Shown here: positions 20,051 to 25,582 of the stretch, piece by piece | How positions within the stretch are numbered: position 1 is the first letter of the stretch | Layout: the number at the start of each line of letters is the position of its first letter | Notes under the pieces: generated by a model | Seen by the model: only the letters and a program-made list of their open reading frames with translations | Told to the model about the DNA's origin: nothing | Database searches by the model: none | Made by a program: the position numbers and the translations under genes | From: Deltaproteobacteria bacterium | Lineage (GTDB): Bacteria > Myxococcota > Myxococcia > Myxococcales > 40CM-4-68-19 | Assembly: GCA_018266095.1 (NCBI GenBank) | Contig: JAFEBC010000100.1 | Coordinates: forward strand, 1-29,248 | Reading direction: 5' to 3' | DNA: 29,248 nucleotides

Positions 20051-20187
20051 GCTTCACAGGAAGGAAAGAAGGAAGGGGTTCCGGCCTTGGAGCAGCGACG
20101 GACGCCCTGTGAAAAGCGACGACGGGGAGATGGATCTCTTGAAGGATTCCTAGGGCGACACCCTTCCTTCTTTCCTTCCTGTGAAGC
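20051..20187. mobile_element. 137-bp MITE/REP-like element with perfect 27-bp terminal inverted repeats
   Basis: GCTTCACAGGAAGGAAAGAAGGAAGGG (20051-20077) is the exact reverse complement of CCCTTCCTTCTTTCCTTCCTGTGAAGC (20161-20187); 83-nt spacer; lies between convergent genes. Mobility is inferred, and no target-site duplication was seen. Confidence 0.65.
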
Positions 20188-20201: not shown

Positions 20202-23200
20202 CTAACGAACGCTCGCGACCTTCTCGCCGAAGAGCCGGTCCACCGCGGCCAAGAGATCATCATCGGGCGCGACCTTGAACGCCTTGAGCGCGAGCTTCGT
20301 CTCCGCCACGCCCGGCTGCACGAGGATGAGCTGCGCTGAGCACAGGCCCGGGTGCTTCACGAAGAGCCCCTTGAGCTCGCCCAGCTTCTCCGGCGTGGCC
20401 GCGTCCGCGTTCACGCGCAGCTCGACCTTGCTGGCCTTGGCGGCGCGCACGTCTGCGAGCTTCTGCACCTCGTCGACCTTGATCTCCGGCTCGGGATCGC
20501 TCGCGGCCTCCTGGTTCGCGTCCGCGCCGAACTTCTCGGCCAGGCGCACCATGCCCTTCACCAGCACCGGGTCGTCGCCCTTGAGCAGCGTCTCGAACTT
20601 CTGCACCACGTCGTCGTACATGACGAGGTTGCGCGCGCCCGTGAGGTCCTCGAGCACCGCGAAGGCGATCTTCTTGCCCGTCTTGGTGAGCCGCTCGCGC
20701 CAGCCGGTGACGATGCCGCACACGCCCACCTTCTCGAAGCCCTTGGCCACCGCCAGGGACGCGCAGGTGTGCGTCGCGTAGCGCTTCACGTCGGCCTCGT
20801 AGCGCGCGAGCGGGTGGCCGGTGATGTAGAAGCCGATCGCCTCCTTCTCCTTCGCGAGCCGGTCGCGCTCGGGCCACTCTTCCTTGCCGAACACGCGCTC
20901 TTCCGGAGGCGGCGGCGCGGCGCTTAAGCTGGACTTCTTCACCGGCGCGCCGAAGAGGCCGAACTGGCCCGAGTCGCGATCCTTCTGCGCCGACGAGCCG
21001 GCGGCCAGCGCGGGCTCGATCGCGTCCCACAGGGCCTTGCGCGGCTTGCCCATGAAGTCGAACGCGCCCGCGGCCACCAGCGCTTCCACCGTCTTGCGGT
21101 TGAGCTTCTTCGAATCGATTCGGCTACAGAAATCGAACAGCCCTCGGAACGGCGCCTTGGGAAGCTGCGCGCCCGCCTTGTCCTTGGGCTCGCGCACCAC
21201 CAGGATGGCGTCGATCGAGTTCTCGCCCACGCCCTTGATGGCCCCGAGGCCGAAGCGAATCAGGTTCGCGGCCTGCTTGGTGCCGCGCTTGGCGTTCGGG
21301 TTGTACGCCGGGTTCGGCGCGACGCCGAAGGCCAGGTCCGAGTCGTTCACGTCGGGCTGCAGCACCACGATGCCGTCCGCGCGCGCCTCGGCGATGTGCG
21401 CGACCACCTTGTCGGTGTTGTCCTTCTCGCTCGTGAGCAGCGCGGCCATGAACTCGACCGGGAAGTGCGCCTTGAGCCACGCGGTTTGATAAGTAATCAA
21501 GCCGTATGCGGCCGAGTGCGACTTGTTGAAGCCGTACTCCGCGAACTTCTCCATCAAGTCGAAGATGTCGTTGGCGACCTTGGGATCGACGCCGCCCTTC
21601 TCGCAGCCCTCGAGGAAGCCCGAGCGTTCCTTGGCCATGACCTCGGCCTTCTTCTTGCCCATCGCGCGGCGCAAGAGGTCTGCGCGGCCGAGCGAGTAGC
21701 CGCCCAAGACCTGCGCGATCTGCATGACCTGCTCTTGGTAGACGATGACGCCGTACGTGTCCTTGAGGATGCCCTCGAGCCTCGGGTGCGGATACGTCAC
21801 GCGCTCGCGGCCGTGCTTGCGGTTGATGAACACGTCGACCATGCCCGAGTCGAGCGGGCCCGGGCGGTAGAGCGCGCCGGCGGCGATGATGTCCTCGAAC
21901 ACGCTGGGCTTGAGCTTCTTCACCATCTCGGTGAAGCCCGACGACTCCATCTGGAACACGCCGGCCGTGTCGCCGCGCGAGATGAGCTCGTAGACCTTCT
22001 TGTCGTCGAGCGGCAAGAGCGTGATGTCGATCTGCTGATCGGCCGCGCGGCCGCGGTTGGCGAGCTTGACCGCGTCGCTGATGACGGTGAGCGTCTTGAG
22101 GCCGAGGAAGTCGAACTTGATGAGGCCCGCGAGCTCGACCTCGTCCTTTGCGAATTGCGTGACCAACTCGCCGTTCTGTCCACGGCAGAGCGGCACGTAC
22201 TCCCACAGCGGCTTCTCGCCGATGACCACGCCGGCCGCGTGCATGCCGGTCGAGCGCGTCAGGCCCTCGAGCGCGCGCGCGAAGTCGATGATGGTCTTGA
22301 AGATCGGCTTCGACTCCTGGATGGCCGTGAGCTTGGGCTCGGCCGCGAGCGCGCCGTCGATGGTGGGCGGGTGGCCGTCGATGAGCGCGGGGATGTTGCG
22401 CGTGAGCTCGTTCACCTCGGCGAAGGGCAGGCCCATGACGCGGGCCACGTCCTTGATGGCGCTCTTGGCCGAGAGCGCGCCGTAGGTCACGATCTGCGCG
22501 ACGTTGTCCTTTCCGTACTTATTGGTAACGTATTCGATCACCTCGCCGCGGCGGTCCTGGCAGAAGTCGACGTCGAAGTCCGGCATCGAGACGCGCTCGG
22601 GATTCAAGAAGCGCTCGAAGAGCAGGTTGTACGGCAGCGGGTCGATGTCGGTGATGCGCAGCGAGTACGCGACGAGCGATCCTGCGCCCGAGCCGCGGCC
22701 CGGCCCGACGGGGATGCCGTGCTTCTTGGCCCAGTTGATGAAGTCGGCCACGATGAGGAAGTAGCCCGAGAACTGCATCTTCATGATCACGCCGAGCTCG
22801 AGCTCGAGGCGCTCGCGGTACTCGTCGGGCTTGATCTTGTCGAGGTACTTGAGCTCCTTGAAGCGCTGATCGAGGCCCTTGCGCGCGCTCTGCGCCATGA
22901 AGGTGTCGAGCGACTCTCCTTCGGGCACCTGGTATTTCGGTAGGAATTTCGACTTGAGGTCGATCTCGACGTTGCAGCGCTGCGCGATGAGCCAGGAGTT
23001 GTGCACGGCCTCGCGCCACTCGCCGCCCACGCCGGTCACGCCCTCGACCACGTTGACCATCTCGTCGGGGCTCTTGATGTAGAGCTCCTCCGTCTCGTGG
23101 CGCAGGCGCTTCGGGTCGTCGAAGGTGCGGCCCGAGGCGATGGCCATCAGCACCTCGTGCGCCTTCGCGTCCGACTTGCCGACGTAGTGGCTGTCGGCGG

Positions 23201-23804
23201 TGGCGACGAGCGGGATCCCTTCGTCGCGCGAGATCTCGCAGAGGCCGTGGTTGACCGGCAGTTGCTCCTTGAGCGCGTTCGACTGGATCTCGAGGTAGAG
23301 CCGGTCGCCGAAGATCTGCTTGAGCTCGCGCGTCTCGCGGCGGGCCTCGTCCATGTCGCCGCGGCGGATGGCCTTGGGCACCGCGCCGGCCATGCAGGCG
23401 GTCAGCGCGATGATGCCCTCGTTGTGCGAGTTGAGCAGCTCCTTGTCGATGCGCGGGTCGTAGTAGAAGCCCTCGGTGAAGGCCTTGGTAGACAAATAGC
23501 GCAGGTTTTTGTAGCCGATGTCGTTCTGCGCCAGCAGCACCAGGTGGTTGCCGATGCGCTGCGACTTGTCCGCGCGCCCCTTGTCGCCCGCGACGTAGGC
23601 CTCGAAGCCGATGATGGGCTTGATGCCGTTCTTCTTGGCCTCTTGGTAGAAGTTGACCACGCCGAACATGTTGCCGTGATCGGTGACGGCGACGGACTTC
23701 ATGCCGGTGGCGGCGCACGTCTTCATGAGATCGGGCAGGCGGATGGCGCCGTCGAGGAGCGAGTAGAGCGTGTGCAGATGGAGATGCGTGAAGTCGGCAG
23801 GCAT
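20202..23804 (-). CDS. dnaE: DNA polymerase III alpha subunit (~1200 aa)
   Basis: MPADFTHLHLHTLYSLLDGA, TDHGNMFG (PHP domain), GPGRGSGAGS, FERFLNPERVSMPDFDVDF, HAAGVVI, KFDFLGLKTL, YGFNKSHSAAY, OB-fold end. No intein motifs seen. Confidence 0.98.
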   Translation of the reverse strand: MPADFTHLHLHTLYSLLDGAIRLPDLMKTCAATGMKSVAVTDHGNMFGVVNFYQEAKKNGIKPIIGFEAYVAGDKGRADKSQRIGNHLVLLAQNDIGYKNLRYLSTKAFTEGFYYDPRIDKELLNSHNEGIIALTACMAGAVPKAIRRGDMDEARRETRELKQIFGDRLYLEIQSNALKEQLPVNHGLCEISRDEGIPLVATADSHYVGKSDAKAHEVLMAIASGRTFDDPKRLRHETEELYIKSPDEMVNVVEGVTGVGGEWREAVHNSWLIAQRCNVEIDLKSKFLPKYQVPEGESLDTFMAQSARKGLDQRFKELKYLDKIKPDEYRERLELELGVIMKMQFSGYFLIVADFINWAKKHGIPVGPGRGSGAGSLVAYSLRITDIDPLPYNLLFERFLNPERVSMPDFDVDFCQDRRGEVIEYVTNKYGKDNVAQIVTYGALSAKSAIKDVARVMGLPFAEVNELTRNIPALIDGHPPTIDGALAAEPKLTAIQESKPIFKTIIDFARALEGLTRSTGMHAAGVVIGEKPLWEYVPLCRGQNGELVTQFAKDEVELAGLIKFDFLGLKTLTVISDAVKLANRGRAADQQIDITLLPLDDKKVYELISRGDTAGVFQMESSGFTEMVKKLKPSVFEDIIAAGALYRPGPLDSGMVDVFINRKHGRERVTYPHPRLEGILKDTYGVIVYQEQVMQIAQVLGGYSLGRADLLRRAMGKKKAEVMAKERSGFLEGCEKGGVDPKVANDIFDLMEKFAEYGFNKSHSAAYGLITYQTAWLKAHFPVEFMAALLTSEKDNTDKVVAHIAEARADGIVVLQPDVNDSDLAFGVAPNPAYNPNAKRGTKQAANLIRFGLGAIKGVGENSIDAILVVREPKDKAGAQLPKAPFRGLFDFCSRIDSKKLNRKTVEALVAAGAFDFMGKPRKALWDAIEPALAAGSSAQKDRDSGQFGLFGAPVKKSSLSAAPPPPEERVFGKEEWPERDRLAKEKEAIGFYITGHPLARYEADVKRYATHTCASLAVAKGFEKVGVCGIVTGWRERLTKTGKKIAFAVLEDLTGARNLVMYDDVVQKFETLLKGDDPVLVKGMVRLAEKFGADANQEAASDPEPEIKVDEVQKLADVRAAKASKVELRVNADAATPEKLGELKGLFVKHPGLCSAQLILVQPGVAETKLALKAFKVAPDDDLLAAVDRLFGEKVASVR

Positions 23805-24172
23805 GGCGGGTGTTGTGCTTCGCGCGGGCGCGCAGATCAAGCCTTGACTTGTGGCTGCGCGGTCGCGTGGGGCTTCGATTGGGACTCCGCGGTCCCGAGG
23901 CGTGGGGAGGGTTGCGCCCTCCGGGAGGCCTGCGGCTTGGGCCGGCACCTCGCGTCCGCGAGGTGCTGGAGCTCCGGACTACGCCTTGATGTGCCGCGCC
24001 TCAGTCGGGCGCAATCCCTCCCCACGCCCCGGGACCGCTCTTGGATCCATTGGAAAGGGCGACGCGGGCGCACGTGCAACGGCCGGCTCGCTCTGCGCTC
24101 TTGCGACGCGTACGGGGAGAACGACGGGGCCTGCCGACTTCACGCATCTCCACCTGCCCACGGCCCTCGACG
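23769..24172. repeat. Long imperfect palindrome (inverted duplication) including the 5' end of dnaE
   Basis: Central GCACCTCGCG-TC-CGCGAGGTGC (23945-23966); arms 23889-23919/24007-24038 differ by 1 substitution and 1 indel; arms 23769-23801/24130-24162 are 31/33 identical. Confidence 0.9.
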
Positions 24173-24222
24173 CCGAGTCCGCTGAGGGAGGCCGGTGGAA
24201 AGGCGCAGTGTCCGCTTGCGGC

Positions 24223-25128
24223 TCAGCCCAACAGCTCTCGCAGCGCTCCTTCCACTTCCGGGAACTTGAACGCGAACCCCGCCGCTTGCAGCTTCTCCGG
24301 GATCACCCGCTGGCTCGCCAGCACCGCGTCCGCGAACTCCCCGACAGCCAGTCGCACGGCGAGCGCAGGCACCCGGGCGATGCTGGGGCGATGCAGCACC
24401 TTGCCGAGCGCCTTCGCGAACTCATTCATGTTCACGATGCCGGGCGCGGCGGCGTTCACGGGGCCCGCGAGCGTCGCGTGGTCCAGGAGGAAGAGACACA
24501 GCGCGATCTCGTCGGCGAGGTGGATCCAGGGGAACCACTGCTTGCCGTCGCCCAGCGGGCCGCCGACGAAGGCCTTGAAGGGCGGGAGCATCTTGGCGAG
24601 CGCGCCGCCCTCGGGGGCGAGGACGACGCCGGTGCGCAGTTGGATGGTGCGGACGCCGAGGGCCGCGGCGGGCCCGGCGGCGGCCTCCCATTGCTGGCAG
24701 ACGGTGGCGAGGAAGTCCTTGCCGGGCGCGCCGGATTCGTCGAGGCGGGTGTCGCCCTGCGAGCCGTAGTAGCCGACGGCGCTCGCGGAGAGGAAGACGC
24801 GCGGGCGCTTGGTGGCGGCGCGGAGGGCTTCGACGCAGGCGCCGGTGCTGTCGAGGCGGCTCGCGAGGATGCGGCGCTTGAACTCGGGGTCCCAGCGCTG
24901 GTCGCCCACGTTGAGGCCGGCCATGTTGACGAGGGCATCGGCGCCGTCGACTTCGCGGGACCAGTCGCCCTGCGTCTTGCCGTCCCAGAGCACGAGGCGC
25001 GCGCCGCGGGTCCACTCGGCCTGCGCGGGCTTGCGGGCGAGGGCGACGACCTCGTCTCCGCGGGCGACGAGCGCCTGAACCAGTTCCTTGCCGACGAGGC
25101 CGTTGGCGCCACCGATGACGACTTTCAT
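24223..25128 (-). CDS. TIGR01777-family NAD(P)-binding epimerase/oxidoreductase (YfcH-like), ~301 aa
   Basis: MKVVIGGANGLVGKEL Rossmann motif, LVNMAG, SASAVGYYG, LRTGVVL, GPLGDGKQWFPWIH, GPVNAAAP, SQRVIPEKL..AGFAFKFP. Confidence 0.92.
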   Translation of the reverse strand: MKVVIGGANGLVGKELVQALVARGDEVVALARKPAQAEWTRGARLVLWDGKTQGDWSREVDGADALVNMAGLNVGDQRWDPEFKRRILASRLDSTGACVEALRAATKRPRVFLSASAVGYYGSQGDTRLDESGAPGKDFLATVCQQWEAAAGPAAALGVRTIQLRTGVVLAPEGGALAKMLPPFKAFVGGPLGDGKQWFPWIHLADEIALCLFLLDHATLAGPVNAAAPGIVNMNEFAKALGKVLHRPSIARVPALAVRLAVGEFADAVLASQRVIPEKLQAAGFAFKFPEVEGALRELLG

Positions 25129-25219: not shown

Positions 25220-25582
25220 ATGAACGAGCTGTGTTGGATTTCCCTTCAAGTTCAGGACGTGGAGCAGTCGCGGTATTTCTGGCGCGATGTGGTCGGCCTG
25301 CCCGAGAAGGCCGCGGCCACGGACTTCGTCGAGCTCGAGCTGCGGCCGGGCCTGCACCTGCAGTTGCACCCGGTGTTCCACTCGCCCGCGATGGAGCGCT
25401 CCGGCTACGATCGCGGCGGGCCGATGCTCGGCATCCGCGTGATGGACCTCGAGCAGATGACGAGCCTGCTCTCGCGGCACGGCGCGCGTCCGCTGGGCGA
25501 CGTGCAGCACATCCCGGGCGGGCGCTCGCGCGACATGGAGGACCCGGACGGGTACGTGTTCGAGCTGGTGGAGAAGCGCTAG
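25220..25582 (+). CDS. VOC (glyoxalase/bleomycin-resistance) family protein, 120 aa
   Basis: ISLQVQDVEQSRYFWRDVVGL...MEDPDGYVFELVE; ATG 25220 follows a TATGTT hexamer. Confidence 0.88.
   Translation: MNELCWISLQVQDVEQSRYFWRDVVGLPEKAAATDFVELELRPGLHLQLHPVFHSPAMERSGYDRGGPMLGIRVMDLEQMTSLLSRHGARPLGDVQHIPGGRSRDMEDPDGYVFELVEKR

Follow-up and report, generated by a model that had tools for sequence, protein, structure and literature searches.

MITEs (miniature inverted-repeat transposable elements) and other structured intergenic repeats are known from many bacteria, among them Correia/NEMIS of Neisseria, ERIC/IRU, RUP and REPIN. Here we describe a repeat of this general type in a 29,248-nucleotide stretch of contig JAFEBC010000100.1 (the window), part of a metagenome-assembled genome (MAG) of a Deltaproteobacteria bacterium, where it occupies the spacer between dnaE, the gene for DNA polymerase III alpha, and an upstream gene of the TIGR01777 family, and where the first codons of dnaE reappear in inverted orientation beyond the repeat's far end. 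Like the families named above it is short, non-coding and hairpin-forming, has terminal inverted repeats, occurs between genes in tens of dispersed copies, differs among related genomes in its presence or absence, and sits beside gene ends, where it is probably co-transcribed. It differs from them in that many copies carry private mirror arms outside the element, derived from host DNA and of fixed polarity, and in that neither a target-site duplication nor a parent transposase has been identified for it. To our knowledge such arms have been described for none of those families, and a literature search for bacterial MITEs with inverted flank duplications found nothing relevant.

Inverted duplications can also arise by snap-back of a DNA end, as in the tandem inversion duplications of Salmonella. 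The Salmonella events and the fold-back inversions of yeast (PMC7467729) resemble the structures described here in that a hairpin lets a 3′ end prime on itself, inverting the adjacent DNA, but they span kilobases, are unstable and were selected in the laboratory, whereas here the copied stretches measure tens of bases and are fixed in a naturally occurring genome. A further likeness is to template switching at quasi-palindromes (the Ripley model; PMC5941160, PMC13100816), a replication-linked process in which one arm is rewritten as the complement of the other and arms are perfected and lengthened. Those cases mostly involve a few to some tens of bases in short repeats, whereas the nucleus here is a mobile hairpin of 156 bp, and the patches are set apart by their length (20–34 nt or more), their location 17–87 nt outside the hairpin, their recurrence and their single polarity.

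A mirror copy of the dnaE start beside a dispersed hairpin repeat

Nucleotides 3–36 of dnaE, which comprise the last base of the ATG and codons 2–12 and are kept as the dnaE start in relatives, lie on the minus strand at 23769–23802 (the native arm) and reappear as their reverse complement on the plus strand at 24129–24162 (the distal arm). The two 34-nt arms are identical at 32 positions (94% complementary), and the distal arm is the sole match of the dnaE-start arm in its own 6.1-Mb assembly (blastn-short E ∼1e-7 genome-wide and 2e-11 locally). An inverted match of this kind had been pointed out in the initial annotation, and its particulars are borne out by the sequence: 31 of 33 nucleotides agree over 24130–24162, the first 23 of them without exception, and a GGG at 24127–24129 occupies the position of the ATG. 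The inner arm pair (23889–23911 and 24016–24038, 96% complementary) and the perfect central 10-bp hairpin (23945–23954 and 23957–23966) noted there are likewise present. The weaker similarity said to connect the arms fares less well. Identity drops from 94% in the 34-nt arm to ∼50–58% on either side; the faint mirror image of the dnaE promoter region (24081–24128 on the plus strand, compared with 23805–23848) agrees in 29 of 50 aligned columns, a marginal value, since 16 shuffles of 3000 and 87 random genome pieces of 3000 also reach it; and beyond the arm, over dnaE codons 13–23, similarity is at chance level. A possible continuation of the copy at 24165–24175 on the plus strand, which matches dnaE codons 17–20 at 10 of 11 positions after a 9-nt gap, is not significant alone.

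The interior of the spacer has a different character. When the spacer is used as a query against its own genome it returns dozens of matches, all confined to its middle, and the MAG contains at least 67 repeat copies of 130 nt or more, in both orientations and with 75–96% identity. Because the centre of the spacer is a dispersed repeat, the second arm pair and the central hairpin of the initial annotation are the terminal repeats and core of an element; the inner 156 bp of the intergenic region described there as one fold-back belong to this repeat. The core extends from 23886 to 24041 (plus strand) and has 31-nt terminal inverted repeats, the 23889–23911/24016–24038 pairing reaching ∼31 nt with a 1-nt offset. 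To its left lie a degenerate extra copy of the element end in direct repeat (23849–23870), whose counterpart in the family consensus lies ∼36 nt out from the core, and a short stretch of conserved sequence that completes the left outer part (23849–23885). The right outer part (24042–24080), delimited from the family alignment and the flank listing, consists of a conserved extension and a degenerate end-like stretch and weakly mirrors 23849–23885. The 418-bp spacer is best explained as three parts: the native dnaE promoter, an inserted copy of a MITE-like repeat, and a short mirror copy of the dnaE start past the repeat's far end.

With its small size, lack of coding sequence, terminal inverted repeats, many dispersed copies and variable presence between related genomes, the inner 156 bp are a species-specific MITE-like element. 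The repeat was found in none of 33 genomes of the same family, and it was seen neither at the dnaE locus of the relatives searched nor beside the acyl-CoA dehydrogenase gene of five relatives. A scan of 23600–24400 against Rfam gave chance-level miRNA matches only and no family for the repeat, and an exact scan of a genome contig collection for the central hairpin gave no match, although this genome itself may be outside the collection. Direct repeats of the flanks that could represent a target-site duplication do not rise above background, the ends being blurred by the extra end copies such that duplications of 2–4 bp could hide. A search for an autonomous relative, as pairs of ends 0.4–4 kb apart, returned only neighbouring small copies, in a MAG that is 88% complete and breaks at repeats. 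The genome contains five matches to Y1_Tnp, and no repeat sequence lies within 2.5 kb of any of them, whereas repetitive extragenic palindromes (REPs) or REPINs accompanied by a RAYT transposase would be expected to flank such a gene; the repeat is nonetheless REP/REPIN-like in its clustered units and in its orientation bias relative to the sign of the GC skew, a proxy for replication direction. Many copies adjoin tandem extra copies of the element end with a short spacer (periods of 34–38 and 57–58 nt), and small, REP-cluster-like arrays of such ends are present at contigs C540:3600–3700, C969:1320–1390, C838:5480–5550 and others. A repeat end lies within 200 nt of the contig end in 22 contigs, so the repeat probably breaks the assembly. 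There is a caution here for annotators: palindromes of this kind break up assemblies and can pass for designed regulatory structures.

Mirror copies across the repeat family and their polarity

The dnaE arms are one instance of a recurrent pattern. We compared the two 160-nt flanks of every full copy of the repeat (51 copies) with repeat-like sequence masked, and found private inverted matches scoring at least 16 in 12 of the 51. Such scores were reached by 2 of 1500 pairs of swapped flanks and 2 of 2000 random loci, and by 0 of 51 copies when the flanks were compared in direct orientation. Alignment in symmetric register places 21 copies above the 95th percentile of controls and 14 above the 99th (Mann-Whitney p = 3e-8). 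The best patches are 20–34 nt long, near perfect and unique to each locus, and their arms lie at nearly equal distances from the two ends of the core (83/87, 53/56, 77/69, 39/40, 17/21 and 43/38 nt). The new arm has the features of an inverted repeat expanded by a template switch: it is the reverse complement of nearby DNA, it is in register with the hairpin, and it is derived with respect to outgroups.

The native arm is usually within a real gene and may be at either end of it, 3′ ends being represented as often as 5′ ends. Mirrored 5′ ends are those of dnaE, uvrC, tsaD, a DUF2259 gene and a hydrolase gene, and mirrored 3′ ends are those of the genes for an acyl-CoA dehydrogenase and a MopE-repeat protein, a DUF4842 gene and two further open reading frames (ORFs). 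The dnaE locus is the strongest of many such cases, and start codons are not specifically targeted. Three of the mirrored ends are of housekeeping genes and can be inspected at C927:1649–1666 (uvrC start), C264:9750–9853 (tsaD start) and C760:4339–4365 (acyl-CoA dehydrogenase 3′ end). Downstream of the acyl-CoA dehydrogenase gene the mirror copy is absent from five relatives, in which there is also nothing like the intergenic DNA that carries the repeat in this genome.

The arms have a consistent polarity. In all ten copies with one arm in a gene the native arm is at the same end of the element (the 23886 end in the window), and in all ten it is on the 5′ side of the G-rich strand, one of the contigs having a skew of about zero. 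The orientation of the element itself is also related to the sign of the contig GC skew: among the 46 repeat copies on contigs of 4 kb or more of this genome the two orientations are split 18/6 and 7/15 (Fisher p = 0.007, or p = 0.012 with one copy per contig), an orientation bias that resembles the one reported for single-strand transposons. GC skew is unrelated to coding-strand balance (rho = −0.06), so that it plausibly reports replication direction. A bias in gene proximity that depends on element orientation, which could have given rise to the polarity, was not seen with a crude coding mask (13 versus 11), and mirror copies are not significantly enriched among skew-concordant copies (12:2 versus 18:12). 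The plus strand of the window is G-rich almost throughout. Since the leading strand is usually the G-rich one, the flank replicated first would be the template, and the flank replicated after the hairpin would receive the copy.

Origin of the mirror copies

The explanation that we consider best, and probably correct, is that a mobile hairpin repeat came to lie upstream of dnaE and that a mirror copy of its dnaE flank was then made by template switching. Having just copied the hairpin element, a nascent strand would fold back on it, or cross the fork, copy a stretch of the already replicated flank in register with the hairpin axis, and afterwards return to its own template. The same process would operate at many copies of the repeat with a direction that follows the strand asymmetry of the chromosome, the template flank lying to the 5′ side on the G-rich strand and keeping to one end of the element throughout. 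Template switching homogenizes and lengthens the arms of inverted repeats (PMC5941160, PMC13100816), and at a larger scale it gives fold-back inverted duplications (PMC7467729). The mirror copy of the dnaE start appears to be a side product of replication across a mobile hairpin, as opposed to a dedicated dnaE switch, and that an essential gene has its start copied in antisense is probably a chance outcome of repeat biology without a regulatory purpose. The initial annotation had listed a relic fold-back duplication among its alternatives; this comes close to the reading that we favor, but the element is not a simple relic. The 94% identity of the arms is close to this repeat copy's own identity to the family consensus, from which it differs by ∼6% as estimated by eye.

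Several points weigh against this reading. The contrast between the arm (94%) and the sequence to both sides of it (∼50–58%) shows that one contiguous fold-back duplication with subsequent neutral decay is not a complete explanation; because the arm is so much better kept than its surroundings, either patchy or repeated in-register templating or conversion checked by selection on the coding arm must be assumed. The arm shows no visible microhomology at its inner edge, and no independent contig or read extends across the whole repeat. The polarity is derived from ten cases and crude gene calls, and the direction of replication is a reading of GC skew in a fragmented MAG. The arm duplex may also have a selected role.

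If template switching is responsible, the repeat provides natural, genome-wide evidence that a mobile hairpin seeds template switching, mirrors gene ends and does so with a polarity that follows strand asymmetry, linking three subjects that are usually treated separately: MITE-like repeats, quasi-palindrome mutagenesis and replication direction. It would also provide a one-step route to long, gene-specific RNA hairpins that could serve as terminators, RNase III sites or start-site masks. A stronger version, which we offer tentatively and are inclined to doubt, is that the repeat represents an undescribed class of hairpin element that grows host-derived arms, with the DNA at one fixed end mirrored across in a direction set by the replication fork, such that long locus-specific hairpins are steadily made over gene starts and ends; those at dnaE, uvrC and tsaD would then be ready-made antisense clamps open to recruitment by selection.

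Alternatively, the mirror copy could be a footprint of the chemistry by which the element inserts, for example if a 3′ end released at one end of the element snaps back onto the terminal repeats and is elongated with the flank on the other side as template. The fixed polarity relative to element orientation (10 of 10) is in keeping with this, as are the extra tandem copies of the element end beside many of the copies. However, only about a quarter to 40% of the copies have a mirror copy, the arms are 17–87 nt from the core and do not abut it, the relation to GC skew explains the polarity equally well, and no transposase could be tied to the element. We therefore regard this origin as unlikely.

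Predicted RNA pairing, the dnaE locus and further alternatives

Long-range pairing within mRNAs is known to mask translation starts, and RNase III processes repeat hairpins in Neisseria mRNAs. The dnaE locus resembles such systems in that the distal arm would pair with the first dnaE codons in a 34-bp duplex on a read-through transcript, and is unlike them in that neither conservation nor covariation was found and in that the predicted promoter is downstream of the distal arm. The minus-strand RNA from 24225 to 23740 is predicted to fold at −280 kcal/mol (z = −9.6 relative to shuffles), and the arm duplex on the read-through RNA at −94 kcal/mol, covering dnaE +3 to +36. With the distal arm present the predicted pairing probability of dnaE +1 to +37 is 0.89, compared with 0.59 without it; the AUG itself is mostly unpaired in the read-through fold. 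The initial annotation noted that two of three substitutions would be G:U pairs on the minus-strand transcript, and two of the three arm mismatches are indeed U:G-compatible on the minus-strand RNA, the third being A:G, but one of these two wobbles, at 23898, is a private change of a repeat copy whose consensus has G.

dnaE is a 1200-codon gene on the minus strand (20202–23804, ATG at 23804–23802), identified from the ORF list and by the PHP domain in the N-terminal 200 residues of its product (E 1e-56), and it is the only dnaE found in the assembly. Upstream of it and co-oriented is the TIGR01777-family gene (24223–25128, minus strand), which is epimerase-like, with Epimerase and DUF1731 domains. 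The gene probably begins with the Met at 25128, which is residue 32 in the longest ORF, rather than at 25221, as both the Atlas record and the alignments of relatives begin there. A TIGR01777-like gene directly precedes dnaE in most relatives, and the spacer between them is 29–100 nt, typically 49–64 nt, in most of ∼55 metagenomic loci, compared with 418 nt here; match coordinates in several related genomes imply a similarly short spacer. The same-genus genome G002 has ∼2.1 kb between its TIGR01777-like gene and dnaE (contig C477) in place of ∼50 nt. No homology of the window's spacer to those of relatives was detected beyond the dnaE start, so the mirror copy may either have been added to native spacer DNA or have replaced some of it.

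A promoter-like motif is present in this lineage immediately before the dnaE ATG. In relatives it consists of a TTGAC-type −35, a gap of ∼17 nt and a −10, and of 70 distinct upstream sequences 64 have their best −10 ending 4–10 nt (mode 7) ahead of the ATG. The window has the same layout in the native promoter region (23805–23848, minus strand), with a −35-like TTGATC (23840–23835), 17 nt, a weak −10-like CACAAC (23817–23812), 7 nt and the ATG; the −10 is weaker than the CAGATT, GAGATT and CACATT of the nearest relatives, and a consensus promoter/terminator scan returned nothing. As judged from the motif, promoter activity is predicted here, and its lineage-wide position suggests a leaderless dnaE mRNA. 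Because the motif is right before the ATG, transcription of dnaE is predicted to begin on or close to the ATG and downstream of the distal arm.

These observations bear on the possibility that the distal arm is kept as a cis- or trans-antisense control, in which it would pair with dnaE codons 2–12, either on read-through RNA or as part of the TIGR01777 3′ untranslated region, block initiation or create an RNase III site, and so tune or insulate DnaE synthesis. The predicted duplex and the rise in pairing that it brings on read-through RNA are consistent with such a role, as is the much better preservation of the 34-nt arm than of its surroundings, and with the weaker −10 upstream transcription might matter more than in relatives. 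However, pairing is not conserved in the relatives checked: no inverted copy of the dnaE start was found in an upstream scan of 11 related genomes, and the spacer in the ∼55 metagenomic loci leaves no room for one. Unrelated genes have this architecture too, and it is also found at gene 3′ ends; the AUG is mostly unpaired; the leaderless transcript predicted from the promoter-like motif would lack the distal arm; and among the listed runs holding the stretch none is on record as RNA. The proposal that a fold buries the dnaE initiation region is thus upheld as a predicted pairing with +3 to +36 on read-through RNA and finds no support as an evolved dnaE control. The lack of conservation, the recurrence at unrelated gene ends and the proximal promoter together argue that the duplex is a by-product with no selected regulatory role, and we think selected antisense control improbable. 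Masking of codons 2–12 on read-through RNA from the TIGR01777 gene is a possible side effect, and any resulting silencing or exposure to cleavage would be limited to transcripts of upstream origin.

It is also conceivable that a palindrome including the dnaE start was present beforehand and that the repeat entered it at the centre. The element has the arms placed symmetrically around it and hairpin-targeting insertion sequences are known, but no such palindrome is present in relatives, whether at dnaE or downstream of the acyl-CoA dehydrogenase gene, the ancestral spacer would not have had room for one, and a mechanism would still be needed for dozens of palindromes that overlap coding ends, making this very unlikely. 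An insertion that duplicates a hairpin was considered separately and rejected, as the direct repeats that it predicts are absent (0 of 51, maximum score 10).

Equally remote are the proposals that the 34-nt arms are the recombination sites of an invertible, phase-variable promoter segment or that they are a fold-back artefact of assembly, even though inverted repeats do bracket a promoter-bearing segment of 326 bp and the assembly is broken up at this repeat. Inversion would leave the sole dnaE found with GGG where its ATG now stands, for which reason the recombinase-type repeats raised in the initial annotation are unlikely, and no strand-changing joint is present at the arms in the contigs of four runs, while an artefact should yield exact, open-ended mirrors and not an imperfect 34-nt patch with the gene expected from synteny beyond it. 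Since the gene order of relatives is recovered across the join and the mirror copy is short and imperfect, a fold-back artefact is very unlikely. The distal arm is moreover joined to the upstream gene in an independent contig, a 1580-nt Logan contig of sludge run X1 that covers 24012–24700 at 97.7% identity and includes the repeat end, the distal arm and the upstream gene. On the other side a 183-nt contig of soil run X2 covers 23748–23930.

In runs X1 and X3, Logan contigs with a ∼98% match to dnaE diverge from the window at 23851–23852 and carry 21–25 further unlike letters, suggesting that strains differ at the outer left end of the element. A further palindromic element, remarked upon in the initial annotation, is located at 20051–20187, directly after the dnaE stop codon, so that dnaE is bracketed by two different hairpin elements.

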